Positions 4,158 to 61,110 of a stretch of DNA of 64,000 nt are shown here, piece by piece. The stretch comes from Candidatus Moraniibacteriota bacterium (lineage in GTDB: Bacteria > Patescibacteriota > Minisyncoccia > Moranbacterales > UBA2206). Position 1 is the first letter of the stretch, and each line of letters starts with the position of its first letter. Both the position numbers and the translations under genes were made by a program. Below the pieces are notes generated by a model. It was not told where the DNA came from. It made no database searches and saw only the letters and a program-made list of their open reading frames with translations. The stretch spans positions 717 to 64,716 of the forward strand of contig JBAQNM010000006.1 in assembly GCA_049303795.1 (NCBI GenBank). The letters run 5' to 3'.

Positions 4158-4892
4158 CTATTTTTTTGCGATTTTCCAAAGCAATTTAAAATAGCTCAGA
4201 TAAGCATCATGAATATCTTGACTGTCCATTTGAATAGCAAATATTTCCTTGCCGAAAGAAATTAATGTGACGCAATTATGCCAAATTTGAATTGAAATTG
4301 GAGTTGTGTGCTCTTGTCTCAAAAATCTGCATTCTCTATTTATTCTCTTAAGATTTATAGCTTCTTTTCTATATGCTTCACTAAATAATAATTTTGATTT
4401 TATATTTTTGTCTTGTCGCAGCTTATTGCTTTTCTCGAGAATTCCTCCAACTTCCAACATCTTAGTATGCTCCTCTGCTAAACAAGCCAAGATATATATT
4501 TCACTATTGGCTGGCATTTTTTCGTCATTTCGCAAAATAAGTTCGCGATAAGCCTGCGCCCCTTCATAAATTTTTATCTCCTGTCTGTTTGTCTGCCCTC
4601 CGAGTTTTTGATTAATTTCTTTTATAAGATTTTTAGCAATTTGTTCTTTAGTTTTTATATTATCAAAAATATTATCCGGATTAGAAATTTTATAATGATT
4701 GCGTCGTCCTTTTACCACGCCAATTACCATATTTTTTTCTATAAGACCCTTTAAGGCATCATAAATGACCTGACGATGTATTTTCAGTCTTTCAATTATC
4801 GGTCCAACTGTAACCTCCCCAACTTCAAGAAGGGTTTTATAAACTTTTATTTCATTATTAGTCAAACCAAGTTGTTTTAGTTCATTTTCCAT
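4158..4892 (-). CDS. TrmB-like winged-helix transcriptional regulator, paralog 1 of 9
   Basis: N-terminal LGLTNNEIKVYKTLLEVGEVTVGPIIERLKIHRQVIYDALKGL matches the TrmB-type wHTH. About 245 aa. C-terminus ends ...YFKLLWKIAKK, as in the other paralogs. Confidence 0.6.
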   Translation of the reverse strand: MENELKQLGLTNNEIKVYKTLLEVGEVTVGPIIERLKIHRQVIYDALKGLIEKNMVIGVVKGRRNHYKISNPDNIFDNIKTKEQIAKNLIKEINQKLGGQTNRQEIKIYEGAQAYRELILRNDEKMPANSEIYILACLAEEHTKMLEVGGILEKSNKLRQDKNIKSKLLFSEAYRKEAINLKRINRECRFLRQEHTTPISIQIWHNCVTLISFGKEIFAIQMDSQDIHDAYLSYFKLLWKIAKK

Positions 4893-5089
4893 TTTTTCTT
4901 GATGTCAGTTTAAAAATGACACCTAATTATTTTTTGGTTAATTATAGACCTATACTAGCGCAGTTTTTAACTGATGTCAAGTTTTGTCATCGGTTTTTTG
5001 TTGACAATATTTTTAAGATATGCTACTTTTCGCTGTTATTTACAACGCTAGATAGCTTACTTTAACAATCTAATAAAGGAAAATTAATC

Positions 5090-5431
5090 ATGACAACATC
5101 AGCTATGTTAAAAATCCATTTCCCTTACGTAAAAATTAACACCTTAAACAATTTAAATGAATTCTTAAAAAGTGAGGAAAATAAAATCCCTAATAATTTA
5201 TGTAGAGGTGGAGGAGGAGATCGCTATTATTTTTGTATTATTGAAAAAATCTCCTTATCTATGGTGTGTGATGAGTCTAAAGATATAGCCTTAGCAATAA
5301 CTTTGACACTAGTCGATGGCTATCACAGTAATATTTTTAAGGATGGCTTTTATCAATATGTGTCTGTTCGTGATAATTTTTTTAAAAAAATATCCGAAAT
5401 TATTGGTGACGACCATCCACTACGGGACTAA
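5090..5431 (+). CDS. Hypothetical protein (113 aa), divergent from TrmB-like paralog 1
   Basis: ORF with upstream AAAGGA-type RBS, followed by a strong terminator. No recognisable domain. Confidence 0.4.
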   Translation: MTTSAMLKIHFPYVKINTLNNLNEFLKSEENKIPNNLCRGGGGDRYYFCIIEKISLSMVCDESKDIALAITLTLVDGYHSNIFKDGFYQYVSVRDNFFKKISEIIGDDHPLRD

Positions 5432-5461
5432 TTAATAAAACTACAACATTAACTTACACAA

Positions 5462-5495
5462 AAGGACGAGAATTATCTCGTCCTTATTTTTTTAT
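5462..5495. terminator. Bidirectional rho-independent terminator (AAGGACGAGA-atta-TCTCGTCCTT followed by a T-run)
   Basis: Perfect 10-bp stem plus TTATTTTTTT. Lies between convergent genes 5090..5431(+) and htpX(-). Confidence 0.7.
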
Positions 5496-5511
5496 CTAAA
5501 GATTAGAGTTA

Positions 5512-6408
5512 TTACACATCCATCCCTCTTAACGCCTTTATTCTCTCTTCAATTGGTGGGTGGGTCATAAACATCTTCATCATTTTTTTTCCCTTGAAAG
5601 GATTGGCGATAAAGAGATGGGCGGTGGCGCGGTTAGCGGCTTCGAGTGGCTCCGTATCTTGAGAAATTTTTTCCAAAGCTTTTGCCAACCCTTCTGGATA
5701 GCGAGTGAGAAGTGCGCCTGAAGCATCCGCCAAAAATTCACGTTTACGAGAAATTGCCAATTGCATTAGCATGGCCGCAATAGGCGCTAAAATAGAAAGA
5801 ATGATTGCTACAATTATGAGAATCATTCGCAATTGTCCACCTTCACTGTTATTGTCTCTCGAGCGTCCTCCAAAAAAAGCCCAGTGACGAAACCAATCTG
5901 CCAAAAGTGTCACGAATCCCACCAGAATCACGATCACGGTTGAAAGTAAAATGTCGCGATTGCCAATATGTGATAACTCATGCGCAATCACGCCCTCAAT
6001 TTCCGTTTTTTCTAATCGTGAAATTATCCCAGTAGTGAGACAAATTACTCCATGCTGTGGATCACGGCCTGTGGCAAAAGCATTCATCGCTGAATCTTGG
6101 ATTATATATATTTTTGGCACTGGTAGTCCCGCCGTAATGCAAAGATTTTCCACAAGATGATAAATTTCCGGATTTTCAGAATGCTTTACCTCCTTGGCAG
6201 AACTCATCGCTAAAACTATTTTGTCACTCCACCAATATGAACCAAGACTCATAAGTGTTGAAAAAATAACTGCTCCATATAAAATTGCACTATTCCCCAT
6301 CGCCTGAGCAAAAACATAGCCCACACCAATAACAAAAATTAAAAAACCAGAAATATAAATCCAGGTAAGTCGAGTATTTCTATCTGATTGATCATATAAA
6401 GTCGCCAT
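5512..6408 (-). CDS. htpX: Zinc metalloprotease HtpX (peptidase M48)
   Basis: HELSHIGNRD (HExxH) motif and TM helices. The C-terminal FMTHPPIEERIKAL motif is typical of HtpX. Confidence 0.9.
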   Translation of the reverse strand: MATLYDQSDRNTRLTWIYISGFLIFVIGVGYVFAQAMGNSAILYGAVIFSTLMSLGSYWWSDKIVLAMSSAKEVKHSENPEIYHLVENLCITAGLPVPKIYIIQDSAMNAFATGRDPQHGVICLTTGIISRLEKTEIEGVIAHELSHIGNRDILLSTVIVILVGFVTLLADWFRHWAFFGGRSRDNNSEGGQLRMILIIVAIILSILAPIAAMLMQLAISRKREFLADASGALLTRYPEGLAKALEKISQDTEPLEAANRATAHLFIANPFKGKKMMKMFMTHPPIEERIKALRGMDV

Positions 6409-6423
6409 AAGAATATAATACCA

Positions 6424-7482: not shown

Positions 7483-7490
7483 TATTCTAC

Positions 7491-8727: not shown

Positions 8728-9003
8728 CTAAATTTTTTTTCTGATCGCATAAAATTTTAGCGTCACCCTTCTTAGCAATGGCATCTTGAAAACATGGGCA
8801 TTAAAGCGAGGATTGATTTTATTTATTTGATCGCAGCACATTCTCGCAAATTTTTTTTTATTAAAATTTGCGATTCTGGTCCCGCCTACTATTTCGCCGC
8901 TTTCTTCATCAAAAAGATCAGCAAAAACCGCATAACGAAAGACTTTACCCCATTTAACTGCACCCTTAAATTCCAATCCTATTTCTGATTTAAATTTTTT
9001 CAT
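8728..9003 (-). CDS. Hypothetical protein (91 aa)
   Basis: ORF overlaps the upstream gene by ATGA (9000-9003), forming a two-gene operon divergent from TrmB-like paralog 2. Confidence 0.35.
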   Translation of the reverse strand: MKKFKSEIGLEFKGAVKWGKVFRYAVFADLFDEESGEIVGGTRIANFNKKKFARMCCDQINKINPRFNAHVFKMPLLRRVTLKFYAIRKKI

Positions 9004-9359
9004 TCTTCCGCCCCCTCGGGAATTTTCACCGCCAAAACATCAATACACCTAGTAGCTTCTCTGTCAGACAACTTATTCCTCAAAAAAATCATATTATTGC
9101 GATTATGCGAAAGAATTTCAACTGAATCGATGATCATTTCATCATAGATTATCTCTTCTTTTAGCCTATCAAAATATGAAATAAAAACAGTTTGCCCGAG
9201 ACGGCCCTGGAAAATATTTGTTATTTTTTTCGCCAAATCTTCAATTTGTTCATCGTACATCTCAAACACCAGTCTTGATGATCCACCACCTTTTATTTGC
9301 TCTAGCCTCCACCACATAATCTTGCACAATTCTGCAAAAAAATTATAAGTTTTCATCAC
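9000..9359 (-). CDS. Hypothetical protein (119 aa)
   Basis: ORF only; translationally coupled to 8728..9003. Confidence 0.35.
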   Translation of the reverse strand: MMKTYNFFAELCKIMWWRLEQIKGGGSSRLVFEMYDEQIEDLAKKITNIFQGRLGQTVFISYFDRLKEEIIYDEMIIDSVEILSHNRNNMIFLRNKLSDREATRCIDVLAVKIPEGAEE

Positions 9360-9417: not shown

Positions 9418-9446
9418 TTGACATTAGTAATATTTTGTAATATTGT
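9418..9446 (+). promoter_or_regulatory. Putative sigma-70 promoter for paralog 2 (TTGACA - 17 nt - TATTGT)
   Basis: Perfect -35 hexamer at 9418-9423. 17-nt spacer. AT-rich -10. Confidence 0.4.
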
Positions 9447-9475
9447 AAATACTGTCGTAACATTTCCACAACATT

Positions 9476-10243
9476 ATGAAACTAGACAATATTTTGAATC
9501 TATTTAATATTAGAGAAACAGAGAAAGAAATTTTTAAGATTTGCTTTGAATCTGATGGGATTGGGGCTAGCGAAATTGCCAAAAAAATAGGAATTAACCG
9601 CACTTCGACTTATGATTTTTTGGATAATTTGGTTAAAGCCGGTCTAATCATTGAATCACAAAAACAAGGAGTAAAAAAATTTTACGTCCAAAAACCGGAA
9701 AAAATCGAAGAGCTAATTAAAGAAAAAGAAGGAAAAGTTTCAGTTGCTAAAAAATCGATAGAGGATCTTAAAAATAATTTTTACCAAAATAAAAAAAGAA
9801 TTGCCCCAAAAATGCAGTTCTACGAAGGAAAAGAAGAATTACGACAGATGATGAAAGATTTGCTATTATATCAAAACATAACAATCTATTCATTCTGGCC
9901 AATTGAGAATATTATTCAAGCTCTTGGAAAAGATTTTTACAGAGAATTTCATGTAAAAAGAGTCGCTAGTAACATTAAAATTAAAGTTATTTGGCCACAA
10001 AAACATACTAAGCAAAAAGAGAAGCACTCTTTTCTTGAAGGATCTGAAAATTTCAAAAGAGAAATCAGAATCTTACCTGAAGATATAGACTTTAATCTCG
10101 GCTACACTATTTATAGTAATAATGTTAGATTTATGTCCTCTCAAAAAGAAGGCTACGGATTTATAATTGAGAGCCAAGAAATGGCAGATACAATGAAAAA
10201 ACAATTTGAGATTATTTGGAAAATATCTAAACCCTTATCTTAA
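9476..10243 (+). CDS. TrmB-like winged-helix transcriptional regulator, paralog 2 of 9
   Basis: N-terminal wHTH (EKEIFKICFESDGIGASEIAKKIGINRTSTYDFLDNLVKAGLI). C-terminal GYTIYSNNVRFMSSQKEGYGFIIESQEMADTMKKQFEIIWKISKP is shared with the other paralogs. Confidence 0.6.
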   Translation: MKLDNILNLFNIRETEKEIFKICFESDGIGASEIAKKIGINRTSTYDFLDNLVKAGLIIESQKQGVKKFYVQKPEKIEELIKEKEGKVSVAKKSIEDLKNNFYQNKKRIAPKMQFYEGKEELRQMMKDLLLYQNITIYSFWPIENIIQALGKDFYREFHVKRVASNIKIKVIWPQKHTKQKEKHSFLEGSENFKREIRILPEDIDFNLGYTIYSNNVRFMSSQKEGYGFIIESQEMADTMKKQFEIIWKISKPLS

Positions 10244-17342: not shown

Positions 17343-17903
17343 TTACTTCAAAACAAATATCAGTTCAACTCCGGATACTTTCAAGACTCTGACATTTTTC
17401 CGTTCGTGCGCAGGCATTTCTACCGGCTGTCCATCTGCACATTGGGACACTTCTTTCTCAACGAATTGTCCTCCGCAGGTCTCACAGATATCCCCGGATT
17501 TTTTCCATTGATTGATCTCTGAGTGGGGGCAGGGTGCTACGCTGATTTCTGCCTTAATAGTGGGGCTTACTTTTTTAATAAAAACCCCCTTGCTGTTGGG
17601 CACCATCGGATTGCCACTGCTCTCATCAAGAAGTTGTGCGGAACCGGAAATTTCGATGCTATGGAAATCCAGGTAGTGCTTTATTGACCATGCGAGATCC
17701 TTATCTTGCCTGACAATACTTTTCTCCGCTTTTTCTTCAAGAGCGTTCAGGCTATTTTCAAACTCCTCAATTTTTGCTTCGAATGCCTCGAATTCATCAT
17801 TCGCAGTAATTTCACCTTCCACCTCAACGCTTTTTTTGAGAACCTTCAATTGATCTTTCATCCCGTTGATTTTTTTCCGCAGAACATCCGCTTCTTCTTT
17901 CAT
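17343..17903 (-). CDS. Hypothetical coiled-coil protein with a C-terminal Cys-rich zinc-ribbon-like segment (CPHS...CETCGG...C)
   Basis: N-terminal heptad-rich acidic/lysine region. C-terminal Cys cluster. The 3' half of the gene is visibly GC-richer than the 5' half. Confidence 0.4.
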   Translation of the reverse strand: MKEEADVLRKKINGMKDQLKVLKKSVEVEGEITANDEFEAFEAKIEEFENSLNALEEKAEKSIVRQDKDLAWSIKHYLDFHSIEISGSAQLLDESSGNPMVPNSKGVFIKKVSPTIKAEISVAPCPHSEINQWKKSGDICETCGGQFVEKEVSQCADGQPVEMPAHERKNVRVLKVSGVELIFVLK

Positions 17904-17931: not shown

Positions 17932-18510
17932 TTAAATCGAAAATCTCAATCCATGTGCTTCCAAGACATCCCCCAGCTCAGCTAAACCTTTTCGGCCGAA
18001 GTTTTTCATTTTCAACAGTTCACTCTCGGTTTTTTTGGTCAAATCTGCAATTGTAATTATATTGCAATTTCTCAAGATATTTACAACTCTCACTGACAAT
18101 TCATAATTGTCTTCAATCACAACCAGCTGTGAATTATCAAAAGATTCAGATTCCAACTCCCTTGATTTTATCGCAATATTTTCCAATTTTTTCAGCCTAA
18201 GAGGGTTTCTTAATCGCCGGACTGATCCCGCTATATGCACCCTAACAGCTGAAGGCGTTACGCTGTATATCATGGCTATTTCTCTTAAATTATGAGCTTT
18301 ACAATCCAAGCCAAATCTCAATTCTACGACCTCCCTTCGCGAAATCTTATTTGTCCTCTTTTTATTGTTATCGCCAACAAACCCCAGGGAATCAAGAATT
18401 CTTTTAACAATATCCTTATCGCTTTCACTAAGCGCTTTGATATTTTCTCTTGGAATTCCTGTGATTTCTGCCAAAAAAAATGCATATCCTCCTAAAAGCA
18501 TTTTTTTCAT
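17932..18510 (-). CDS. DNA-binding protein with a sigma-70 region-4-like HTH fused to an RNA polymerase alpha-subunit C-terminal-domain-like HhH module
   Basis: RREVVELRFGL...REIAMIYSVTPSAVRVHIAGSVRRLR resembles sigma region 4.2. LSVRVVNILRNCNIITIADLTKKTESELLKMKNFGRKGLAELGDVLEAHGL closely resembles the RpoA alpha-CTD (LTVRSANCLK...ELLKTPNLGKKSL.EIKDVL). Confidence 0.5.
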   Translation of the reverse strand: MKKMLLGGYAFFLAEITGIPRENIKALSESDKDIVKRILDSLGFVGDNNKKRTNKISRREVVELRFGLDCKAHNLREIAMIYSVTPSAVRVHIAGSVRRLRNPLRLKKLENIAIKSRELESESFDNSQLVVIEDNYELSVRVVNILRNCNIITIADLTKKTESELLKMKNFGRKGLAELGDVLEAHGLRFSI

Positions 18511-18619: not shown

Positions 18620-19363
18620 CTATCTATGATTCACATACTGCTTCGACCTTTTCCAGATTATTTCAAACATTGCCGTTAAGGCATTCTTTACTTTAATATT
18701 TTCAATGACAATACACAGACTGTCTTCCGGAATCATAACAACAGTTTTATTTGAAAATAGATAAAGCATAATTTTAAAATCATCAAACATGGCGCTAGTT
18801 CGAATTTGAATTTTGTGATTTTGAATAACAAACTCATCTTTTTCACTGGAAGGAATAATGGTACGGGATTTTATTCCTAGCTTTTTCTTCTCTGTCAATA
18901 AGTCTTTCCAAAAATCATAGCCTAACTTGAAAGCAGAACGAATATCCCCTTCTATTGTTAATAGCTCGTCTTTTTCTGGATTTAAAACGATAATCTCTTT
19001 TAATGTTTCTTTCAGACCCGTGTTTGTATCATAAAATCTTATTTTATTTCCAGCCGATTTTTGCTCAAATGCATTTTCCAATTGAGGCATTAGAGCATCC
19101 AAAAGATAATACTGATCCTTGATTCGTGAGAGCAGTATCTTTGGATTTTTTATATAATACCTCTTTCTTTTTTTGATTATCTCCATGGCAATCAAATCTT
19201 TCTCTGCCATTTGATCAATCACTAAATATAGGGATGTTCTTTTGATTCCTGTATTTTTTGATATTTCCTGAAGAAATTGCGGTCCTTTTTGAAGAAGGGA
19301 AAGATAAATTTTTCCTTGACTGTCAGGCAAGCCAATTTTTTCTAGTTGTTCTTTTGTTATCAT
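18620..19363 (-). CDS. TrmB-like winged-helix transcriptional regulator, paralog 3 of 9
   Basis: N-terminal wHTH (GKIYLSLLQKGPQFLQEISKNTGIKRTSLYLVIDQMAEKDLI). C-terminus ...LTAMFEIIWKRSK. Confidence 0.6.
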   Translation of the reverse strand: MITKEQLEKIGLPDSQGKIYLSLLQKGPQFLQEISKNTGIKRTSLYLVIDQMAEKDLIAMEIIKKRKRYYIKNPKILLSRIKDQYYLLDALMPQLENAFEQKSAGNKIRFYDTNTGLKETLKEIIVLNPEKDELLTIEGDIRSAFKLGYDFWKDLLTEKKKLGIKSRTIIPSSEKDEFVIQNHKIQIRTSAMFDDFKIMLYLFSNKTVVMIPEDSLCIVIENIKVKNALTAMFEIIWKRSKQYVNHR

Positions 19364-19541
19364 AATAATGACGTCAATAATGACGATAAATTTATAATAT
19401 TATTCAATATAACCTTTAAATATAGTATGATATATTATTTAGTTTGTCAAATAAATTGACTAAATATAGAAATAACATACAATCAGACTATCTTTCAATT
19501 GGAAAGATGCACATTAACAATTTATAAAAAGGGAGAATACT

Positions 19542-20660
19542 ATGAAAATAGGAGACTTAGAAAGATTTCAGGCAACAAAAAGATTACCCAAAAGACTTAT
19601 TGAGGATATTCCTGATTTAGTAGCGGCAGTTATTAATCGGGAGTGCAATTTAAGTTGCAAACACTGTGGTTGGGCACCAAAAAATAGTGTTTGCGAAAAA
19701 TATCTCAATAGGGATGGCTGGGATAAGTTCATTGAAAGCTTTTGTCTAGTTGGGAATAAAAAAGAAGAAAAAACAATCGTGATTTCTGGGCGAGAGCCAT
19801 TATATGATCTGGATTCAAGAAAAAAACTCATATCTATTCTATTGAGCTCTCGAAAGCAAGGGATTTATTCCGGATTTATCACAAATGGAATTAATCTGCC
19901 TTTTTTGTTCGAAGAGTATCCTTATTTTATTCCGGATTTTATGGATATCAGCCTTGAGGGGCCAAAAGAAATTAATGATAAAATTCGAGGAGCAGGATCT
20001 TTTGAAAAAACTTTGGCTGGTCTAAAGATAGCTCTTAAAAAAGTGGAAAAATTGTTTATTTCCACCACTGTAACAGCTATTAACATTCAGACTATTCCGA
20101 ATTTTGTTCAGTATTTGGCTCGGTTGGGAGCTAAGCGGTTAGTTTTTCATTCTCTAATACCAGGAGAATTTGTTGCGCCAGGAATTCAGACTGAAGATGA
20201 CGACTTTCTTGAAATGATAAAGAAAATAAATCAATTAGCGATTAAGCTAGAATTAGAACAAGTCATTTTTGATTTATATCCACCGTCTTTTAAAAATTTC
20301 CCCATGGTAATTGAGAAAATAAAGCCGGAAAATCTATTTATTGATAATTATATCGTGATGCCACTAGCTTCAAATGTATTTATCCGATTTGTTAATCTCA
20401 TGGAGTCATACGCTATTTCTTTTCTGGTTTCTCCGGAAGGCTATACTATTACCCCGCTGGAAATGAGAATGATAAATTATCTCAAGAACAAGGAAAATTG
20501 CCATCATGTTCAAAATATTTTGGCTTGGGATGGAAACCCTTATGCTAATGAAATAGTAAAATTGGCAAAAAACATTCCTGATATTTGTTTTGAGCAAAAA
20601 TGTTTCAAATTTTGTCTGGGGCAAAACTCATTTTGCCCATTATCTAAAAACAAAAAATAA
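19542..20660 (+). CDS. Radical SAM enzyme with a C-terminal Cys-rich auxiliary-cluster (SPASM/twitch-like) region. Candidate peptide-modifying maturase.
   Basis: CNLSCKHC (CX3CX2C) at residues about 36-43. GGE-like ISGREPL. C-terminal Cys cluster NCHH...DIC-FEQKC-FKFC-LGQNSFC. Confidence 0.7.
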   Translation: MKIGDLERFQATKRLPKRLIEDIPDLVAAVINRECNLSCKHCGWAPKNSVCEKYLNRDGWDKFIESFCLVGNKKEEKTIVISGREPLYDLDSRKKLISILLSSRKQGIYSGFITNGINLPFLFEEYPYFIPDFMDISLEGPKEINDKIRGAGSFEKTLAGLKIALKKVEKLFISTTVTAINIQTIPNFVQYLARLGAKRLVFHSLIPGEFVAPGIQTEDDDFLEMIKKINQLAIKLELEQVIFDLYPPSFKNFPMVIEKIKPENLFIDNYIVMPLASNVFIRFVNLMESYAISFLVSPEGYTITPLEMRMINYLKNKENCHHVQNILAWDGNPYANEIVKLAKNIPDICFEQKCFKFCLGQNSFCPLSKNKK

Positions 20661-20674
20661 AGGAGGATTGTAAC

Positions 20675-20791
20675 ATGGAAAAAAATAGTACTAAAAAAAT
20701 TGAAGCTGGATCAATGGCTGGCAGTAAAGGTGGAGTCAAGAAACCGCAACAGCCGGAACCGAAGGAGAATGAAGAAAAACGCAAAGAATAA
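20675..20791 (+). CDS. Small ORF (38 aa, MEKNSTKKIEAGSMAGSKGGVKKPQQPEPKENEEKRKE) immediately downstream of the radical SAM gene. Candidate substrate peptide or small protein.
   Basis: Strong RBS AAAGGAGGA 5 nt upstream of the ATG. Followed about 30 nt downstream by a rho-independent terminator. Too short for the supplied ORF track. Confidence 0.4.
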   Translation: MEKNSTKKIEAGSMAGSKGGVKKPQQPEPKENEEKRKE

Positions 20792-20942: not shown

Positions 20943-21692
20943 TTATTTTGTTAAGCTCCAAATCAAATCAAATTTGCTTTTCTCGCTTTTAGCTATTTCT
21001 TCACTTTCGATTTTAACGGCAATTAGCTCTTTTTTGGAGGTGAAAATTGCTACTGTATTTTGATATATTAAAACAAAAGATGGGTGATAAAAATCTGCTG
21101 GTAGAAATTTTATTTCTCGTAAATCGCTAGCATTTTTTTCACTCGAAAAAAAATCTTTAGGAAAAAATTCTGCCACTTCTTTCTCAAAATATAAAGCTTT
21201 TATCTTGGAATTATTTTTTATTCTTTCGGGAATATAGTATTTTTGATCATATTCTTGCCCAACTATTTCATAAATTTTTTTGAGAGATCCAATAGCTCGG
21301 ATAGTTTCGTTCATTTTTAATGATTCATTGGCAATTGAAATGTAACCTTCTTTTCCCTCATACATAGTCACTCTCGGCTTGTAATAAGAGTTTTTTTGAA
21401 TAGCATTAAGTTCAGGGATTATTTCATTGACCTCGCTCAATCTTTTTTTTAATTGATCAGAAAGCAAAGTTGGTGACGAAGCAACAAAACGCAAACCATT
21501 GGGTAATTTAAAATTTCCCATCAAACCTTTTTCTTCAAGATTTTTTGCAATCAAATATGCTGAACTTCTTTTAATCCCAGCTATTTTAGCGATTCTGGCT
21601 AGAGGTGCTTCGCCTAATTTCAAACCAGCCAGATATAGTCGTGTTTCTTCATTGCTTAGTCCATAATTTTTCAAAACTTGTTCAATATTCAT
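20943..21692 (-). CDS. TrmB-like winged-helix transcriptional regulator, paralog 4 of 9
   Basis: N-terminal wHTH (ETRLYLAGLKLGEAPLARIAKIAGIKRSSAYLIAKNLEEKGLM). C-terminus ...SKFDLIWSLTK. Confidence 0.6.
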   Translation of the reverse strand: MNIEQVLKNYGLSNEETRLYLAGLKLGEAPLARIAKIAGIKRSSAYLIAKNLEEKGLMGNFKLPNGLRFVASSPTLLSDQLKKRLSEVNEIIPELNAIQKNSYYKPRVTMYEGKEGYISIANESLKMNETIRAIGSLKKIYEIVGQEYDQKYYIPERIKNNSKIKALYFEKEVAEFFPKDFFSSEKNASDLREIKFLPADFYHPSFVLIYQNTVAIFTSKKELIAVKIESEEIAKSEKSKFDLIWSLTK

Positions 21693-21897
21693 ATTGTTGT
21701 TATTTATGACAACAGTATATCATGCTTATATTTAATAGTCAATAGTGGCTTAATTTAAGCAATAATATTACTTTAAATTTAATAAAAATAGTCATATTTC
21801 AGGACATAACTTTGACTAATAGCTACATTTCTGCTAGTATTAACAGTTAATAAAAAAGGATAGTTATTTAAAAATTTAATTGAAAAGGAGAAATAAG

Positions 21898-22098
21898 GTG
21901 AATGGAGACCTACTATTAATAAAACTACTAGCTTCTTTTGGAGTATCCATTATTATGGGAGTTATAATGACACTATTGGATCAAATGTTTGCGGTAAAAA
22001 GCGATATATTATATAAGGTAGCCCTCATGGGGTGCGGAGCGTGTTTATATAAAATTTTTTCCTTTATTTTTCTGTCAGAGGATAAAGATGAGAAGTAG
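21898..22098 (+). CDS. Small hydrophobic Cys-containing ORF (66 aa from GTG, ...KVALMGCGACLYKIFSFIFLSEDKDEK). Candidate precursor peptide or small membrane protein.
   Basis: RBS AAAAGGAG 6 nt upstream of the GTG (the ORF track starts earlier at TTG 21880). Its C-terminal acidic/lysine tail and 3' UTR/terminator are shared with the 38-aa ORF at 20675. Confidence 0.4.
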   Translation: MNGDLLLIKLLASFGVSIIMGVIMTLLDQMFAVKSDILYKVALMGCGACLYKIFSFIFLSEDKDEK

Positions 22099-22448: not shown

Positions 22449-22697
22449 TTAGATTTCTTTGAACTTTTTAGATTTGCTTTTCACTTTTTTTCTCCTATAT
22501 TTCAAAATGGTGTCTTTTTTATTCTGAAAAATATCCAGAGAGAACGCTATGAAAATAGCTATTAGCATTGTTGAATAAAAAGCTGAGAAAAAACGTATAT
22601 AGGGGTCTTCTGATAAAAAACTAATTGACCCCAAGGTAATTACGCAAACCATGATTATCTCTATACGAATTTTTATTGATTTACTGATTTTTTTCAT
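22449..22697 (-). CDS. Hypothetical small membrane protein (82 aa)
   Basis: Two hydrophobic helices with a lysine-rich tail. Terminator hairpin on the minus strand at about 22300-22340. Confidence 0.35.
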   Translation of the reverse strand: MKKISKSIKIRIEIIMVCVITLGSISFLSEDPYIRFFSAFYSTMLIAIFIAFSLDIFQNKKDTILKYRRKKVKSKSKKFKEI

Positions 22698-22699
22698 TT

Positions 22700-23359
22700 T
22701 TATCTCCTTGGCTTTTCCTCAATAGTTGCCATCAGGTCATCAATTATTTGATTTCCTGATTTTTCCAATAATTCCAACACTCCTTTTGCACCGTAATCCA
22801 ATAATGTTAGCTTGCCTTTATGATAGGAAAAATTTTCGGGGTTAGAAAAAGTGTGTCCGACTGCACCTATTTCTTCTCGGTATTCTTTTTTTGCAACTAT
22901 TTCCCAAAGTTTTCCAAAAGTAAATCTTTTTTTGACATTTCCTCTTTGATAATCGAATTTTATTTTGCCAGCGCCTTCTTCAAAGCGGTAGAAATTTATA
23001 AATCCGAGCGAAAAATACAACTTTGTCAGTAAAGGATGTTTTGTTTTGTGCCAGCATACGGCCTCTCTGTAGTTTTCCATTAAACCTAACGTCAACCATT
23101 CCCATATTATTTCGAGGCTTGAAATAATAGTTGATCTTTTTTCTCCTTTTAAAATATCCTTACAAAGACGACGGAGTTCTTGATATAAAAACAAAAGTCT
23201 TATCCTGGGTATTTTCATGACTATATTTCTTTTTGTCACTTTATTACTAAAATTACCATATTTTTCTTTTCGTATCTCTTTCACAGTTTTACTTTCAAGG
23301 ATAATTATTAGTCGGGTTGTACCTTCACTGCTAAACGTTATTTTCAGTTCATTTATCAT
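22700..23359 (-). CDS. Hypothetical protein (219 aa), divergent from TrmB-like paralog 5
   Basis: ORF only; no recognisable domain. Confidence 0.35.
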   Translation of the reverse strand: MINELKITFSSEGTTRLIIILESKTVKEIRKEKYGNFSNKVTKRNIVMKIPRIRLLFLYQELRRLCKDILKGEKRSTIISSLEIIWEWLTLGLMENYREAVCWHKTKHPLLTKLYFSLGFINFYRFEEGAGKIKFDYQRGNVKKRFTFGKLWEIVAKKEYREEIGAVGHTFSNPENFSYHKGKLTLLDYGAKGVLELLEKSGNQIIDDLMATIEEKPRR

Positions 23360-23426
23360 TTTTTATCTCCTATTTCTAAATAGATTGTTCGTTATGTTTT
23401 TAAATAACTTTGCCAAACGCCAATCG

Positions 23427-23455
23427 TTGACAATCAAGGGAATATACTATAATAT
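23427..23455 (+). promoter_or_regulatory. Putative sigma-70 promoter for paralog 5 (TTGACA - 17 nt - TAATAT), followed by palindrome CGTCA-tcc-GACG at 23477..23488
   Basis: Consensus -35 and an AT-rich -10. An inverted repeat lies between the promoter and the ATG at 23503. Confidence 0.45.
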
Positions 23456-23502
23456 CCAATGTATGTAAATATGTTGTCGTCATCCGACGAACAAGCAAAA
23501 AT

Positions 23503-24288
23503 ATGGATATAATAAAAATCTTAGAAAAAATCAATTGCACGGATTTTGAAGCCAGAACTTTCCTGGCGCTCTTGGAGGAATCAAAAGGCGCGAGCGTTTT
23601 GGGTTTGAGTAAAAAGTTAAATCTGCCTCGTCCTACAATTTATGGTCATATAGAATCTTTGATTGAAAAAGGGTTGGCAAAAAAAGGCGTGGGAGAAACC
23701 GGGGCAGTTTTTTATGCTGAAGATAAGGAAAATATTCTAAGCATTTATAATGAAAAAATTGAAGAAATGAAAAAGGCCCGGGAAAATTTTTCTGAGGCAT
23801 TTAAAAATAAAGATTATGGAGCCACTTATCAGCCAAAATTAATCCACTATTCCACTAAAGATGCTGCCAAATCAATTTTGCGCGATATTTTGAGATCAAG
23901 AGAAAAGGAAACTTATTGGTTCTGGCCTCTCAAAGAAATGCTGAAAGTAATTCCGGAAGAGGTTCTGCAAAATTTTAATGAAGAAAGGGTAAGAAGAAAA
24001 ATTTGGACAAATATACTTTGGCCACCAAAAAGAAAAATTGATATAAAAAAATATCCCTTGCTTGGGCCTTGGAACGAGAAAGAATCTTTGCGCAGGATAA
24101 AAATTTTACCGGAAAATATCGATCAGACTTTAGGTTATGCGATTTATGGCGACAAAGTAGCCTTCATTTCTTCCGATAGGGAAAATTACGGCATGATTAT
24201 TGACAGCCGAGAACTTGCCCAAACTCTGAAAGCTCAATTTGATTATTTTTGGAAAATATCAAGACTTATAAAACAAGAATCAGTCTAA
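23503..24288 (+). CDS. TrmB-like winged-helix transcriptional regulator, paralog 5 of 9
   Basis: N-terminal wHTH (FEARTFLALLEESKGASVLGLSKKLNLPRPTIYGHIESLIEKGL). C-terminal GYAIYGDKVAFISSDRENYGMIIDSRELAQTLKAQFDYFWKISR. Confidence 0.6.
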   Translation: MDIIKILEKINCTDFEARTFLALLEESKGASVLGLSKKLNLPRPTIYGHIESLIEKGLAKKGVGETGAVFYAEDKENILSIYNEKIEEMKKARENFSEAFKNKDYGATYQPKLIHYSTKDAAKSILRDILRSREKETYWFWPLKEMLKVIPEEVLQNFNEERVRRKIWTNILWPPKRKIDIKKYPLLGPWNEKESLRRIKILPENIDQTLGYAIYGDKVAFISSDRENYGMIIDSRELAQTLKAQFDYFWKISRLIKQESV

Positions 24289-29223: not shown

Positions 29224-29317
29224 ATGACGAATTATTTGTCGTCATTATATAAAAATAAAACTCAATTGTCAAGGATATCTCCATAGAAAGGATAATGTAT
29301 GCTCGTCATTATTGACG
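29224..29317. promoter_or_regulatory. Two palindromic candidate operators upstream of paralog 6: ATGACGA-attatttg-TCGTCAT (29224..29246) and CGTCA-ttat-TGACG (29304..29317)
   Basis: Inverted repeats read directly from the sequence. The second 14-mer is identical to one upstream of paralog 3 (19372..19385, opposite strand). Confidence 0.45.
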
Positions 29318-46372: not shown

Positions 46373-46546
46373 CTATGAGTAACCTAAGAATTTTTCATGC
46401 GGACTCGCTTCTTTCTTTCCACACTTAATACATGCTTTTTTTACCGCAAGCCAGTGCTCCCTTCGGCCGCAACCATTAGGTTGCGACCATTTCCATTTTT
46501 CTATTTGTACAAAAAAATGCTCACATTCCCCTTTCTTTTTTAGCAT
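46373..46546 (-). CDS. Unannotated small Cys/His-rich ORF (57 aa, zinc-ribbon-like, C-x-H...C...C-x2-C)
   Basis: Strong RBS AAAGGGGGT 5 nt upstream of the ATG. The ORF is GC-richer than its surroundings. Not in the supplied ORF track. Confidence 0.3.
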   Translation of the reverse strand: MLKKKGECEHFFVQIEKWKWSQPNGCGRREHWLAVKKACIKCGKKEASPHEKFLGYS

Positions 46547-46714
46547 GATACCCCCTTTTTTTAAAATAAACTACAATAAGAACTGTCCTTATAATAGTCA
46601 TTAAATTTTATAATTACAAAGTTTTTATTAATTACTTGACTAAAATAGCCATTATGTGCTATTTTTTTAATATTAAATAAGACGATATTGTCGTCACTTT
46701 AATATTAATCACCT

Positions 46715-47473
46715 ATGAACAGAATAGAAAAAATATCCAAGGCACTCAATCTTTCAATTTACGAAGCAAAGATATATATTGCGCTCCAACAAAATGGCCC
46801 TCTCCTGATAAAAACACTTTCTAGACATGCAGAAATTCCAAGAACAACTATCTATACTCCGTTGCAAAAACTCCTCAAAAGGGGATTCGCTTCAAAAACT
46901 GTTTTTGGAAAACGTACATATTATTCCGCAATTCAACCAGAATATCTTCTTGGATTTATTGATGAACAAAAAAATCTTCTTCAGCAAACGATTTTAGAAT
47001 TAAATGGATTGGGAAAAATTCAGTCAGAAAAAAATAATTTTGAAACTACCTTTCATAGTGGAATAAACGGAATTAAAACTGCCGGATTATTTTTTTTACA
47101 TAATACCAAAGAAAAAACATGGTACTCTTTTGAAAACCTAGACTTAATAACAGAAAAGGTTAGTTTTGAGTTTGAAACATTTTATATAAAAGAGCGTGTC
47201 GCAAGAAAAATTAAATCAAAAATGATTCTTTCTTTCTCGGAAAAATCTTTTATATCTAATAATTTTTTAAAAAATGACATAAAAGACCTAAGGGAAACCG
47301 TATTGCTTTCTCAAAATCAATACCCCTTCCAAACAACAGTAGTTGCTACAAAAGGATTGGCACTTCTAATAAATCCCAATGAAAATCCTTTTGCTTTGTT
47401 AATTCGCAATAAACATTTAGCCGATACGTTTATCACTATCCATAAATGTTTATGGGGAAAATATAAAGCATAG
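46715..47473 (+). CDS. TrmB-like winged-helix transcriptional regulator, paralog 7 of 9
   Basis: N-terminal wHTH (EAKIYIALQQNGPLLIKTLSRHAEIPRTTIYTPLQKLLKRGF). Palindrome GACGA-tattg-TCGTC at 46681..46695 immediately upstream. Confidence 0.55.
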   Translation: MNRIEKISKALNLSIYEAKIYIALQQNGPLLIKTLSRHAEIPRTTIYTPLQKLLKRGFASKTVFGKRTYYSAIQPEYLLGFIDEQKNLLQQTILELNGLGKIQSEKNNFETTFHSGINGIKTAGLFFLHNTKEKTWYSFENLDLITEKVSFEFETFYIKERVARKIKSKMILSFSEKSFISNNFLKNDIKDLRETVLLSQNQYPFQTTVVATKGLALLINPNENPFALLIRNKHLADTFITIHKCLWGKYKA

Positions 47474-47697: not shown

Positions 47698-48090
47698 TTA
47701 TTCAATGCTCTCTATTTCAGCACAAATATGCACTTCGATTTTAATACCAAGCTTTCCCAATAATCCAATAGCTCGTAACACCTCAGATACTTGACTTGCT
47801 GAGATAATTTTTGGCAAGACGTCTTCCATAATCAAATTTATTTTATATTTTCCAACATCCCTCACATCATAACTATCACCCTTAAACCTAATGGCTGGAA
47901 AGATTAATCGCAGTCCATCCTTATTACATCCCATTACTGTTTGAAGAGGGCTTATCCATTTTTCAGGCGCAACCCTCTTTCCTGAAATAATCTGACTCAA
48001 AAATGATCTAACGCCACTGAGATTTTTTCCTCCAATAAGGGGCATTAATTTTTCTGCAACTTCCTTTTGGCTAATTTTTAACATCATCAA
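47698..48090 (-). CDS. Hypothetical protein (130 aa), divergent from paralog 8
   Basis: ORF only. Terminator-like hairpin AAGGGCTTGCATTTGCAAACCCTTTTTT at about 47650-47680. Confidence 0.35.
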   Translation of the reverse strand: MMMLKISQKEVAEKLMPLIGGKNLSGVRSFLSQIISGKRVAPEKWISPLQTVMGCNKDGLRLIFPAIRFKGDSYDVRDVGKYKINLIMEDVLPKIISASQVSEVLRAIGLLGKLGIKIEVHICAEIESIE

Positions 48091-48302
48091 CTCCTCCTTT
48101 ATTTTATATTATTAAACAACTTTCCAAAAAAATACCTTTCTGGAAAATACTATACACCAATTCGAATAAAATATTGCCAGTAGCGTTATCTTTTAAAAAA
48201 CCTTAATAAGATAAGTTGCTATTATTAGCTTTAATATTGACTTTTTAAGCTATTTTAATTATAATAAAAATAACGACGAAAGTAGCGTTATTATAAAAAA
48301 TT

Positions 48303-49046
48303 ATGCTTTTAGAAAAATTACAAATTGCTGGGTTATCAGAAAAAGAGGCTAAGGTATATGTAGCTGTTTTGGAATTGGGAGAGGCAACAATCGCCGAAAT
48401 TACAAAAAAATCCAAGATTAAAAGATCCACTATTTATGACATACTTAATACTTTAAAGGAAAAAGGCATAATAAGTCAGACTCGCCTCAACAAAAGACCT
48501 ATCTTTTTAGCAGAAAATCCAAAAAAAATGCTTGAAAAATTGGAGGAGAAAAAAAGAGGACTCGAAGAAGCTGTACCAGAGTTGCTTTCGATTATGAATC
48601 TTTTGGATAAGAAACCGAAAATTCGCTACTTTGAAGGAATAGAGGGAGTAAGAGAGGTTTTTGAAGATACACTTCGATATCCCAATCAAGAACTTCTAAC
48701 CTGGTTTTCTCATCCTAATATTAATCTTGGTGAAGATTTTTTTTGGAAATATTACAATCCAGAGCGCTTAAAAAGAAAAATTTGGGGCAGGGCAATCGCC
48801 ACTGATACTCCGCAAAACAGAGCTCTGAACGAAACTTTTGGAAATAAATGGCTAGCAAAAATGAAAATTTCCTCCAATAAATCTCTTCTTAAACTTGATA
48901 TCGAAATAAAGATTTATGGGAAAAATAAGGTTGGAATTGTTTCATACAAAGAAGATCTGGGAATTGTCATTGAAAGTAAAAAAATATATGACGGACTAAA
49001 AGCAATCTTTGAAGTAATGTGGGATTTATTGCCGGAAATAAAATAA
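48303..49046 (+). CDS. TrmB-like winged-helix transcriptional regulator, paralog 8 of 9
   Basis: N-terminal wHTH (EAKVYVAVLELGEATIAEITKKSKIKRSTIYDILNTLKEKGII). C-terminus ...LKAIFEVMWDLLPEIK. Confidence 0.6.
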   Translation: MLLEKLQIAGLSEKEAKVYVAVLELGEATIAEITKKSKIKRSTIYDILNTLKEKGIISQTRLNKRPIFLAENPKKMLEKLEEKKRGLEEAVPELLSIMNLLDKKPKIRYFEGIEGVREVFEDTLRYPNQELLTWFSHPNINLGEDFFWKYYNPERLKRKIWGRAIATDTPQNRALNETFGNKWLAKMKISSNKSLLKLDIEIKIYGKNKVGIVSYKEDLGIVIESKKIYDGLKAIFEVMWDLLPEIK

Positions 49047-55424: not shown

Positions 55425-55431
55425 CAATAAA

Positions 55432-59578: not shown

Positions 59579-59604
59579 TAAACTTTTTCTATTCTACTAT
59601 AAAA

Positions 59605-59640
59605 TACTAAAAGGCTTTCCCGTTCGGGTTAGCCTTTTTA
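59605..59640. terminator. Bidirectional terminator hairpin AAAAGGCTTTCCCGTTCGGGTTAGCCTTTTTACTTTTT, repeat of the element at 36467
   Basis: 24/26-nt identity with 36470..36496. Confidence 0.6.
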
Positions 59641-59644
59641 CTTT

Positions 59645-60175
59645 TTAACAATAAACTACACCTATGATTGTTCCCAACCCTGCTGTAAATGCAAGCAGTG
59701 CAATAATAATGATAAAAAACTGCTCGATTAAACTCCACTCTTCTTCAAACTCTTTTTCTTTTAATCGAACAAGCGATAAAAATCTTATAATTTTTGCAAC
59801 AATAAATACCAAAAAACAAAAAGGCACAAAATGCAACAAAGAATGCAACCAGAAAAATATTTCCGCTCTAACTGTCGCACTCATTATCCACGCCTCTATC
59901 CATAGTCGAATGAACTGTCGGAATTTCCCAAAATCATCAAATCCAAAATAATACACAAGCAGTTTCTCTAATAATATAGGGTAAACTGAAACAAGAAGTG
60001 TTGCTACAGTTATTGCAAGTATTGCTTGAAATAGATTTGTTTTTTCTGCTACTTTTTTCGCAAAAATACATATAGTCAGTATAAAAAAGCAATAAGTAAT
60101 AATGACCACAACTGCAAGAAAAGAACACATAATTTTTGCAAAGTCCGCTACAAAAAACATCGCTATCATTTTCAT
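59645..60175 (-). CDS. Hypothetical polytopic membrane protein (176 aa), divergent from paralog 9
   Basis: 5-6 hydrophobic helices. Confidence 0.4.
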   Translation of the reverse strand: MKMIAMFFVADFAKIMCSFLAVVVIITYCFFILTICIFAKKVAEKTNLFQAILAITVATLLVSVYPILLEKLLVYYFGFDDFGKFRQFIRLWIEAWIMSATVRAEIFFWLHSLLHFVPFCFLVFIVAKIIRFLSLVRLKEKEFEEEWSLIEQFFIIIIALLAFTAGLGTIIGVVYC

Positions 60176-60330
60176 TTTTCCTCTCCTTTTTTTATATTTT
60201 TAAGAAACACTCGGCTTTCCCATAACAAACAAACTTACCATACCCGAATTACATCGTCAATATTTTAGACCTATTTTTGCAATAAATTTATATAAATCAA
60301 ATAAATACCTTGTTTGTGCTATTTTATAGC

Positions 60331-60375
60331 TTGACAAGTCTATTTTATTTGTCTATAATGTAGACTAATAGACTA
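60331..60375 (+). promoter_or_regulatory. Consensus sigma-70 promoter for paralog 9 (TTGACA - 17 nt - TATAAT). Inverted/direct repeats GTCTAT...TAGAC-taa-TAGAC overlap it as a candidate operator.
   Basis: Perfect -35 and -10 hexamers with a 17-nt spacer. Repeats GTCTATtttatttGTCTATaatgTAGACtaaTAGAC read directly. Confidence 0.55.
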
Positions 60376-60381
60376 AGCTAT

Positions 60382-61110
60382 ATGAAAAAAGAACTACAAA
60401 AGGCACTCTCATCTCTGGGAATAAACGAAAAACAAACCAGTCTATATTTGGCTTGTTTGGAATTGGGCTCAGCCAGTATTCAAGAATTAGCACAAAAATC
60501 CGGCATCAAAAGAACCAGCATTTATAATTTTCTTAAAGACCAGAAATTTAAAGAATTATTTTCTGAAATTGAAGAATCAGGCAAGGTTTTGTTAGTCCCC
60601 CAAAATCCTAAGATGCTCGTAGAAAAAGCCAGAAAAAATTTAGAAGAAATTAAATTTGCCTTGCCGGAACTTATGAGTATTTTTAATTTGCCTTCCGAGA
60701 AGCCACGCGTCCGATTTTATCAAGGTGAGGAAGGAATTAAAACGGCCTACCAAGATCTTCTTTTGGAAGGAAAAACCGTTTATGGTTTTTCCGATTATGA
60801 AAAAATGTTTGAGAGTATGCAACATTTTGATATGTGGAGAATTCCCAAGGAAAGAGTTAAAAGAAATATTAAGTTTTTTTGCATTGCAAAAAATGGCCCA
60901 ATGGGCCAAGAGGTGAAAAGAAAAGATAAGGAAGAATTACGCGAAACAAAACTCGTAGAAAATATTCAATTTGAAACAGAGATAAATATTTATGGCAATA
61001 AAGTGAGTCTCATAAGTTTTCGTGAACCTTTCGCCTGCGTGATCATAGAAGATCCCGCTATCTCTCAAACTCTAAAAAGCGTCTGGCAAAGTTGGTGGAA
61101 TTTGCTTTAA
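60382..61110 (+). CDS. TrmB-like winged-helix transcriptional regulator, paralog 9 of 9
   Basis: N-terminal wHTH (QTSLYLACLELGSASIQELAQKSGIKRTSIYNFLKDQ). C-terminus ...LKSVWQSWWNLL. Confidence 0.6.
   Translation: MKKELQKALSSLGINEKQTSLYLACLELGSASIQELAQKSGIKRTSIYNFLKDQKFKELFSEIEESGKVLLVPQNPKMLVEKARKNLEEIKFALPELMSIFNLPSEKPRVRFYQGEEGIKTAYQDLLLEGKTVYGFSDYEKMFESMQHFDMWRIPKERVKRNIKFFCIAKNGPMGQEVKRKDKEELRETKLVENIQFETEINIYGNKVSLISFREPFACVIIEDPAISQTLKSVWQSWWNLL

Follow-up and report, generated by a model that had tools for sequence, protein, structure and literature searches.

Nine TrmB-like paralogs with candidate operators and variable divergent partners in a Candidatus Moraniibacteriota genome

What could nine copies of one regulator family be doing within 64 kb of a bacterial genome? 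The question is raised by a stretch of 64,000 nucleotides (hereafter called the window; G+C 30-40%) from a metagenome-assembled genome of Candidatus Moraniibacteriota, which belongs to the Patescibacteria or Candidate Phyla Radiation (CPR); it codes for nine short paralogs with a TrmB-type winged helix-turn-helix (wHTH). An earlier note on this DNA had suggested that each paralog may control a neighbouring accessory module, or that the family may have a non-canonical role. The results of our analysis favour the former: the nine paralogs are probably autoregulated local one-component regulators of adjacent accessory genes, within a large CPR-wide branch of the TrmB family, control of the neighbour being the most likely reading of predicted paralog-specific operators that are kept in shared divergent promoter regions. 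A non-canonical role is not needed for loci that have the anatomy of classic divergent autoregulated local regulators.

Nine paralogs of one old family

All nine open reading frames (ORFs) reported for the family are present, with exact coordinates and strands, and code for proteins of 242-261 aa. Each of the nine exceeds the gathering threshold of the Pfam TrmB model PF01978 over residues ~5-75 (33.7-61.3 bits against a cut-off of 25.6; E 3e-8 to 8e-17), in agreement with the wHTH assigned previously. In order along the window they are T1 (4158-4892, (-) strand, 244 aa; PF01978 E 5e-14), T2 (9476-10243, (+), 255 aa; 8e-9), T3 (18620-19363, (-), 247 aa; 1e-9), T4 (20943-21692, (-), 249 aa; 4.5e-9), T5 (23503-24288, (+), 261 aa; 6e-10), T6 (28464-29210, (-), 248 aa; 5e-15), T7 (46715-47473, (+), 252 aa; 6e-15), T8 (48303-49046, (+), 247 aa; 8e-17) and T9 (60382-61110, (+), 242 aa; 3e-8). 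The N- and C-terminal motifs quoted previously can be discerned in the alignment consensus of the nine proteins, in which only R40, Y44 and W239 are invariant.

A six-frame profile search of the window retrieves exactly these nine copies and no tenth copy, fragment or pseudogene. Because that profile was derived from the nine proteins themselves, leave-one-out profiles built from the other eight were run as well, and these recover each paralog over its full length with E values from 1e-32 to 1e-58 (T1, 1e-32; T2, 1.5e-55; T4, 1e-46; T5, 1.5e-49; T7, 1.3e-33; T9, 1.3e-52). The C-terminal ~165 residues alone are also recovered (E 1e-12 to 1e-37), so that both domains are homologous across the nine paralogs, even if the ~170 residues following the wHTH have no Pfam coverage. 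Profile searches therefore tie the proteins to one another and to TrmB, the relationship on which the earlier note had staked its case. Pairwise identity, estimated there at 25-35%, turned out to be slightly lower when measured (18-32%, mean 24%), T8 being the closest paralog of T6 at 32%. Since the orthologs of T1 (49-77% identity), T3 (64-87%, at least seven genomes) and T6 (49-74%, 37 orthologous loci) span 49-87% identity, against 18-32% between paralogs, the expansion is old, as had been supposed.

The fold was modelled for T8 with AlphaFold2 on a 42-sequence alignment (mean predicted local distance difference test score, 88.9). The model has a winged HTH at residues 1-70, a long helix at 73-97 and then an alpha/beta domain. 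In a Foldseek comparison with the Protein Data Bank (PDB) its top eight matches are chains of TrmBL2 over the full length (E ~1e-13; best match, 1e-13), followed by TrmB (5e-10) and then by the isolated TrmB sugar-binding domain 2f5t (3e-5, 150 columns). The nine-paralog profile matches Pyrococcus furiosus TrmB (3qph) with an E value of 5e-14 over positions 2-151, well past the HTH, in an alignment reaching residue 153, and TrmBL2 with an E value of 3e-7. Both the model and the profile thus contain the N-terminal alpha/beta sub-domain of the TrmB effector-binding domain after the coiled-coil helix, and the full-length Foldseek alignments give T8 the two-domain, ~264-aa architecture of TrmBL2 without the sugar-binding end. 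The Pfam model for the C-terminal part of TrmB, PF11495, finds no match at E<=0.01 in the nine paralogs, which end at 242-261 aa.

TrmBL2 of Pyrococcus and Thermococcus (PDB 5bpd, 5bqt, 5box) resembles the paralogs in its size of ~260 aa and in the succession of winged HTH, long helix and single C-terminal alpha/beta domain, but identity is only ~18-21% and the NCBIfam TrmBL2 equivalog NF041141 is missed by far (best score 29.2 bits, for T7, against a cut-off of 530). Scores against the NCBIfam equivalogs of TrmB, TrmBL1 and halobacterial TrmB are equally remote (19-40 bits, with cut-offs of 500-650). Membership in TrmB sensu stricto or in the TrmBL2 equivalog is ruled out by these scores, and the nine paralogs belong to the broad TrmB family, with a TrmBL2-like architecture, outside every characterised subfamily. 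With TrmB and TrmBL1 (Tgr), the sugar sensors of Thermococcales and Halobacteria, they share the PF01978 winged HTH, the N-terminal sub-domain of the effector-binding domain (2f5t) and a DNA-contacting tyrosine: in the alignment with 3qph the invariant Y44 is matched to the Y of 'RVYD', which is Y50 of TrmB, and Tyr50 and Asp51 of TrmB contact DNA (PMC4158304). The residue after Y44 is not conserved (D, D, L, L, G, S, T, D, N in the nine paralogs). They differ from TrmB and TrmBL1 in being ~90 aa shorter, without the sugar-binding sub-domain and without counterparts of G320 and E326; TrmBL2 and TrmBL3 also lack the ~70 C-terminal residues that hold these two sugar-binding residues (PMC4158304). 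(Catalysis of the HKD type by a PLD-like C-terminal domain was considered and rejected, because the invariant residues of the paralogs are only R40, Y44 and W239.)

The family is large, with 22,716 clusters at 50% identity for E<=1e-3, 12,879 for <=1e-10 and 4,465 for <=1e-30, and its named sources are Moraniibacteriota, Wolfebacteria, Parcubacteria, Saccharibacteria and the 'Patescibacteria group'. Many members (database proteins P0060-P0101 and others like them) reach lengths of 370-1,079 aa and carry one wHTH followed by 2-7 tandem C-terminal domains that repeat every ~135 aa; because these copies follow a single HTH, the C-terminal domain can be regarded as an autonomous module. The density of the family was said to be far beyond normal, which holds for the window: nine copies per 64 kb compare with ~1.9 further copies per 64 kb in the flanks (+/-10 kb) of family members elsewhere, a biased baseline, and metagenome loci hold fewer still (86 members in 79 loci), giving a four- to nine-fold local excess over the flank baseline. 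It does not hold for the family as a whole, which is widespread in CPR and forms similar clusters elsewhere, such as five copies in 12.9 kb at locus L015 and three in 9 kb at locus L093.

Promoters, candidate operators and their conservation

Each regulator is preceded by a near-consensus sigma-70 promoter, TTGAC(A/T)-N17-TATAAT, and by a palindrome that is specific to the paralog and lies on the -10 box or immediately downstream of it, 20-50 nt ahead of the ATG. In T6 the candidate operator O1, TGACGA-N8-TCGTCA (in full TGACGACAAATAATTCGTCA; 29225-29244, (-)), begins on the base with which the -10 box of the promoter (29272-29244) ends. A second candidate operator, O2 (TCGTCA-N4-TGACGA; 29303-29318, (-)), is found 6 bp upstream of the -35 box of the promoter of the partner gene (29325-29353). 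The promoters of T6 and of its partner are the only two matches scoring 12/12 in a consensus scan of 12 kb; those of T3, T4 and T5 score 10/12. The palindrome of T8, AATAACGACGAAAGTAGCGTTATT (48269-48292, (+)), directly follows the -10 box of its promoter (48237-48265), and its site TAACGA-CGAAAGTA-GCGTTA equals O1 of T6 with a symmetric change, G to A and C to T, in the two half-sites, a pattern that would be expected of paralogous dimeric regulators diverging in specificity.

The upstream palindrome of T1, TTGTCA-N12-TGACAA (4984-5007, (-)), abuts the -35 box (4971-4980) and has a chance expectation in the window of 0.31 at <=1 mismatch; a second one, TGTCA-N9-TGACA, occupies 4903-4921 (-). 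T3 has the site CGTCA-N7-CGTCA just ahead of its ATG (19369-19385, (-)), and a second one, AGTCAA-N5-TTGACAAACTAA, over the -35 box (19439-19461, (-)). Exact matches to the sites of T1, T3 and T6 each occur in the window only at their own promoter. T4 has TGTTGT-N8-ACAACA (21695-21714, (-)) directly after the -10 box of promoter 21742-21714, T5 has TTGTCGTCATCCGACGAACAA between -10 and ATG (23474-23494, (+)) together with the upstream site TTGCCA-N12-TTGACAA (23410-23433, (+)), T7 has GACGA-N5-TCGTC, again between -10 and ATG (46681-46695, (+)), and T9 has GTCTA-N5-TAGAC (60351-60365, (+)), spanning the -10 box of promoter 60331-60359. The weakest candidate of the nine is the imperfect palindrome of T2, TGTCGT-N9-ACAACA (9453-9473, (+)), which follows promoter 9418-9446 and contains one mismatch.

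The nine regulators have higher information-weighted palindrome scores in their upstream regions than other genes do (Mann-Whitney p=4e-4), also when the comparison is with genes that have real intergenic upstream regions (p=4e-3). The words GACGA/TCGTC occur eight times upstream of the nine regulators against 0.62 expected, a ~13-fold enrichment that is post hoc, and paired GACG/CGTC half-sites are almost confined to these promoters; because the half-site words were chosen after inspection of the data, independent tests of the operators were needed. Ortholog sets of T1, T3 and T6 were collected with subfamily alignments and cover +/-6-10 kb around each regulator; those of T3 and T6 are independent of that choice.

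Among the 37 metagenome loci with T6 orthologs, 29 contain TGACGA-N8-TCGTCA with <=1 mismatch in its 12 specified bases. Each of the 29 has a single copy, immediately upstream of the regulator in every case, and there is no other in the ~0.2 Mb of the 37 loci. The 27 distinct sites have the consensus TATAA-TGACGA-CGAAAAAT-TCGTCA, in which operator and -10 box share one base, the last of the box; the right half-site is the same in all of them (27/27), and seven sites have G changed to T in the left half without compensation in the right half. An everted second site, TCGTCA-N3-5-TGACGA, recurs at a constant 71-75 bp upstream of O1 in ~15 loci of the T6 type. In the T3 subfamily the intergenic region has diverged among seven genomes with proteins 62-87% identical, except for two elements that they keep, AGTCAA-N5-TTGACAAACTAA across the -35 box and YGTCA-N7-RCGTCA immediately ahead of the ATG. 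The T1 palindrome abutting the -35 box is kept in the 54%-identical ortholog locus L010 with a diverged spacer (two genomes). (Of note, six loci with T6 orthologs, L033, L040, L043, L046, L051 and L063, have GC-rich, hairpin-forming inserts of ~100 bp between the operator region and the start codon, which end in GTCATTCC...GGAATGAC-like inverted termini and resemble miniature mobile elements.)

Divergent partner genes and their translation signals

All nine regulators of the window are transcribed divergently from a partner gene (9/9), which extends the previous statement that nearly every copy is paired with short ORFs. The neighbours listed then (a radical SAM/peptide locus, 91+119 aa, 82+219 aa, 94 aa, 113 aa, 130 aa and a 176-aa membrane protein) all exist. 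That they stand in place of housekeeping operons is true of the variable partners but not of the 3' sides, where several regulators abut a murE-like gene, holA or ruvC. Among representative genomes (21 non-redundant loci), a divergent ORF lies <=500 bp upstream of 19/26 family members, compared with 91/281 (32%) of other ORFs (p=7e-5), and 51 of 69 members in the 79 metagenome loci have a divergent partner.

The partners turn over. By BLAST, 60 of 89 are singletons, those of orthologous regulators included; orthologs of T3, for instance, face a zinc-finger protein, unrelated proteins of 160, 163 and 209 aa, or a radical SAM enzyme. No homologs of the window's small cargo ORFs were found in ~0.4 Mb of sequence around regulators of other genomes, and among the window genes sought there only the radical SAM gene and a 452-aa methyltransferase recur. 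Orthologous regulators thus keep their operators while partner genes differ between genomes: what persists is the regulator with its operators and what varies is the partner slot, and this supports a regulator with a variable neighbour and disfavours a unit that moves together. Related genomes with these regulators beside conserved core operons alone were not seen; the neighbours are variable. Some partners do recur, namely radical SAM enzymes with T3-like regulators (window, L015, L017), LivJ-like solute-binding proteins, a B12-type radical SAM protein, a ~208-aa methyltransferase and a PIG-L-like deacetylase.

The other distinctive property of the partners is their translation signal. The nine regulators and almost all recognisable housekeeping genes have no Shine-Dalgarno (SD) sequence (anti-SD duplex dG > -3.2), whereas the orphan partners have a strong one, AAGGAG or GGAGG, 6-10 nt before the start. 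First partners in the window are SD-led in 9/9 cases, versus 11/52 other non-family genes (p=1e-5). The same dichotomy appears in other genomes, with 67% of partners against 19% of other ORFs (p=7e-8) and 6% of regulators, and in the metagenome loci, with 45% against 20% (p=0.005) and 9% of regulators. SD-led genes of the window have a GC3 of 0.34 versus 0.28 (p=0.004) and fit the codon usage of known genes less well; the codon usage of the regulators is native and that of the partners slightly foreign. About half of Parcubacteria have been reported without the anti-SD motif in 16S rRNA (PMC9297842), and our search of the literature on SD in CPR found nothing beyond the ribosome paper.

Seen as a whole, the genes of the window fall into two translation-initiation classes, ~19 mostly orphan genes being SD-led, with higher GC3 and atypical codons. 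Most of these adjoin a regulator; examples of the class lie at 3534-4058, 17343-17903, 24520-25050, 30233-30727 and 37476-37787, all on the (-) strand. A 192-aa SD-led protein directly downstream of T3 (17932-18510, (-)) combines a match to Sigma70 region 4 (Pfam E 4e-6) with one to the C-terminal domain of the RNA polymerase alpha subunit (7e-14).

Individually, the partner of T1 is an SD-led 113-aa orphan (5090-5431, (+); duplex dG -5.7) and that of T2 an operon (8728-9359, (-)) of two SD-led orphans of 119 aa (9000-9359; dG -6.1) and 91 aa (8728-9003; dG -10.7), all three without Pfam or PHROGs match. T3 faces a radical SAM gene (19542-20660; Pfam Radical_SAM E 1e-10) followed by an SD-led ORF for a 38-aa peptide (20675-20791), together spanning 19542-20791 (+). 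A membrane-like ORF of 66 aa, read from the sequence with a GTG start at 21898 after AAAGGAG (21898-22098, (+); dG -8.9), faces T4, and an SD-led operon (22449-23359, (-)) of 219-aa (22700-23359; dG -7.3) and 82-aa (22449-22697; dG -8.3) orphans without significant Pfam match faces T5. The partner of T6 is a 94-aa orphan with its ATG after AAGGAGG (29432-29716, (+); dG -11.8), the corresponding gene being called at 94 aa in locus L001; that of T7 is a Cys-rich ORF of 57 aa (46373-46546, (-); dG -11.5), absent from the earlier note; that of T8 a 130-aa orphan convergent with T7 (47698-48090, (-); dG -7.6; no match in Pfam, PHROGs or PADLOC); and that of T9 the 176-aa membrane protein (59645-60175, (-); dG -8.9; no Pfam match).

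Scans of the partners with Pfam, PHROGs and PADLOC (the last with seven cargo ORFs) gave no match save for the radical SAM enzyme. PADLOC returned only a resemblance of T8 to Csa3/CasR at the level of the wHTH (E 9e-8 to 3e-4), and a scan of viral contigs revealed no relatives. A phage or defence origin of the pairs was dropped because the PHROGs and PADLOC scans of the cargo yielded no meaningful match and viral contigs held no relatives.

The 38-aa ORF after the radical SAM gene encodes MEKNSTKKIEAGSMAGSKGGVKKPQQPEPKENEEKRKE. At L015 (2892-4414) a 38%-identical radical SAM protein is followed by a peptide with the same motif, AGSKGGV(K/R)KP, twice, and the two genes may be a conserved pair of radical SAM enzyme and precursor with a core lacking cysteine. 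At L093 (139-8982) three TrmB-like regulators, each divergent from a gene for a LivJ-like periplasmic solute-binding protein, form a tandem array, which suggests duplication of regulator and target pairs in that genome. The 452-aa methyltransferase of the window (61186-62544, (-)) is convergent with T9 and is 56% identical to a homolog encoded close to a family member at L021 (5925-6929); shorter relatives (~208 aa) are the divergent partners of T6 orthologs at L057, L058, L061, L062 and L066.

The promoter regions of some partners have elements of their own. A perfect palindrome, ATCTTTC-AATTG-GAAAGAT (19490-19508), lies near the -35 box of the radical SAM gene, and another, TCAAATTA-AAAA-TAATTTGA (29361-29380), just after the -10 box of the T6 partner; both are unlike the regulators' own sites. 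Several partners (upstream of 5090, 9000, 19542, 21880 and 22700) share the string TTAACAAT(T/C)TAWWAAAAGG, which may be read as a -10-like TAACAAT and, after it, a leader of very few nucleotides that includes the SD sequence.

Proposed function, rival explanations and wider setting

We propose that a dimer or tetramer of each paralog binds its own palindrome over the region of the -10 box and transcription start of its own promoter, which would produce autorepression by occlusion. For T6 and many of its orthologs, the second site ~72 bp upstream (~7 helical turns), beside the -35 box of the divergent neighbour, would also be bound, and one oligomer could control both divergent promoters, possibly via a DNA loop; with O1 at its own promoter and O2 beside the -35 box of the partner, binding would control the regulator together with the adjacent accessory gene(s). 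The paralogs would probably repress until the C-terminal domain, which may mediate oligomerisation, signal sensing or both, detects a signal. The target slot upstream of the regulator turns over fast, orthologs with kept operators facing unrelated partners.

Loci of the TetR, MarR, LysR and GntR type have a regulator back-to-back with its target, palindromic operators over shared promoters and autoregulation, and these families have many paralogs per genome, each with its own specificity. The functional anatomy is the same here, but it is served by another protein family with another effector domain, apparently a main regulator family of CPR genomes; moreover, the target slot turns over, and targets and regulators use different translation-initiation signals. 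Within the TrmB family, TrmB and TrmBL1 likewise have palindromic operators in core promoters, that of TrmB being TACT-N3-AGTA, repress by promoter occlusion and control adjacent transporter genes (PMC4158304), and the CPR members at L093 similarly pair with genes for solute-binding proteins. They differ from the present paralogs, which have a bacterial host, sigma-70 promoters and operators of the form TGACGA-N8-TCGTCA and related ones.

It seems unlikely that the paralogs instead govern wider, global or distal regulons, with the site at their own promoter serving only autoregulation and the divergent neighbour not being the main target. Archaeal TrmB and TrmBL1 do control many promoters (PMC4158304), our search covered only +/-6-10 kb around each regulator, and a second site beside the partner promoter was not shown for most paralogs; nevertheless, the divergent arrangement exceeds its base rate more than two-fold in three independent data sets, the O2 of T6 lies 6 bp from the partner's -35 box at a conserved distance from O1, and the exact operators are found nowhere else in the 64-kb window or the scanned flanks. 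We find it less probable still that regulator and cargo are mobile or duplicating cassettes inserting together, as might be surmised from the three tandem pairs with LivJ-like binding proteins at L093, a radical SAM gene lying between two T3-like paralogs at L015 and the local clustering of paralogs. Orthologs 64-87% identical with kept operators face unrelated partners, the regulators have native codon usage and their partners do not, viral contigs hold no relatives, housekeeping genes separate the copies, and no integrase, transposase or flanking repeat was recognised among the window ORFs read or scanned, a scan that included no systematic repeat search. Of the modular system of regulator and variable cargo envisaged by the earlier note, the variable lineage-specific neighbours are supported and its literal reading as a mobile module is not, for the regulators are native and in place while the partners change.

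The best structural matches, TrmBL2 chains of the same two-domain architecture and length, would fit nucleoid-associated proteins that coat DNA without sequence specificity, TrmBL2 being a chromatin protein and global repressor (PMC4158304, PMC3031468). We regard such a role as very improbable for the paralogs. TrmBL2 is a single, highly conserved and abundant archaeal protein found on coding and intergenic DNA (PMC4158304), whereas here nine divergent bacterial paralogs each have a distinct, conserved and uniquely placed palindrome as predicted specific operator at their own promoter; in addition, the residue of the recognition helix beside the conserved tyrosine differs between paralogs, and the TrmBL2 equivalog scores do not exceed 29 bits against the cut-off of 530. 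Just as improbable, in our opinion, is that the palindromes are hairpins of the mRNA 5'-untranslated region, acting in stability or SD-independent translation, and not protein-binding DNA. The sites between -10 and ATG are probably transcribed, the regulator genes have no SD, and several sites could form short hairpins, CGTCATTATTGACG having been picked up by a terminator scan. Yet other SD-less genes have no such element, and O2 and the upstream sites of T1 and T3 lie upstream of -35 boxes and are not transcribed. Protein-binding DNA is favoured because it is the sequence of the half-sites, not their pairing, that is conserved: the left-half G to T changes in seven O1 sites have no compensatory change in the right half, and several orthologs have the T3 site as a direct repeat, which cannot pair.

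Several points weigh against local autoregulated control by the nine paralogs. The proposal rests wholly on computation, TrmBL2, the nearest relative in structure, is a chromatin protein without sequence specificity, and promoter-like matches do not significantly exceed those in shuffled sequences (59 vs 47.9 +/- 6.8), so that only the top matches are informative. The enrichment of GACGA/TCGTC concerns words picked after the data had been seen. Conservation was tested for T1, T3 and T6 only of the nine subfamilies, the sites of T2, T4, T5, T7, T8 and T9 resting on a single sequence each, that of T2 weak, and O1 was undetected in eight of the 37 loci with T6 orthologs, some of which have inserted GC-rich elements. 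Moreover, operators were scanned in the 64-kb window and in flanks of +/-6-10 kb, which leaves distant members of a regulon beyond reach, and SD sequences were scored with an anti-SD duplex, the host's own 16S rRNA lying outside the window.

Patescibacteria or CPR make up a large share of bacterial diversity in which gene control is essentially unstudied; a perspective of 2024 calls the mechanisms governing their differentiation between cell states completely unknown (PMC11665869), and our literature search found no publication linking TrmB-family proteins to CPR bacteria. The locus presents a common type of regulator from a branch that is unstudied, distinguished by clear and testable operators, by a target slot of fast turnover and by an unexplained coupling to SD-led orphans; in other genomes the family also faces familiar kinds of target, among them solute-binding proteins, methyltransferases and radical SAM enzymes. 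The cis-elements comprise a 20-bp operator kept in dozens of genomes of uncultured organisms, a second site with a constant spacing of ~72 bp and the natural specificity swap between T6 and T8, all of which can be tested in vitro with synthesised proteins and without cultivation. The link of the regulators to SD-led, compositionally atypical orphans suggests how very small genomes control variable accessory genes, and touches the open question of why the anti-SD motif is missing from about half of Parcubacteria (PMC9297842).

A broader scheme, which we put forward as speculation and hold to be rather doubtful, is that CPR bacteria might have a two-tier expression system: core genes and TrmB-like regulators would be SD-less, and fast-turnover, often foreign accessory genes would be SD-led and each gated by a dedicated TrmB-like repressor, the intergenic region upstream of the regulator acting as a recurrent 'landing pad' that gives newly acquired genes regulated expression. 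Were this so, these reduced genomes would have their principal family of transcription factors in the short TrmB branch, whose paralog-specific operators would evolve by symmetric changes in the half-sites.

Finally, the genomic setting of the paralogs is that of core genes, with which they are interspersed. Translation reading and Pfam labels identify in the window pyruvate kinase, HtpX, LemA, a MurE-like ligase, FemAB, RuvA/B/C, PolA, Fpg and HolA, as well as S20, TsaE, a PilB-like ATPase, YebC, PBP1A and an ATP-grasp cluster; these surroundings of the regulators are core genome, with no obvious island. The PilB/T2SSE-like ATPase (32918-35974, (+); 1,018 aa) looks like two complete ATPase modules fused together, and its relative at L016, of 558 aa, aligns over 557 residues to the window protein.

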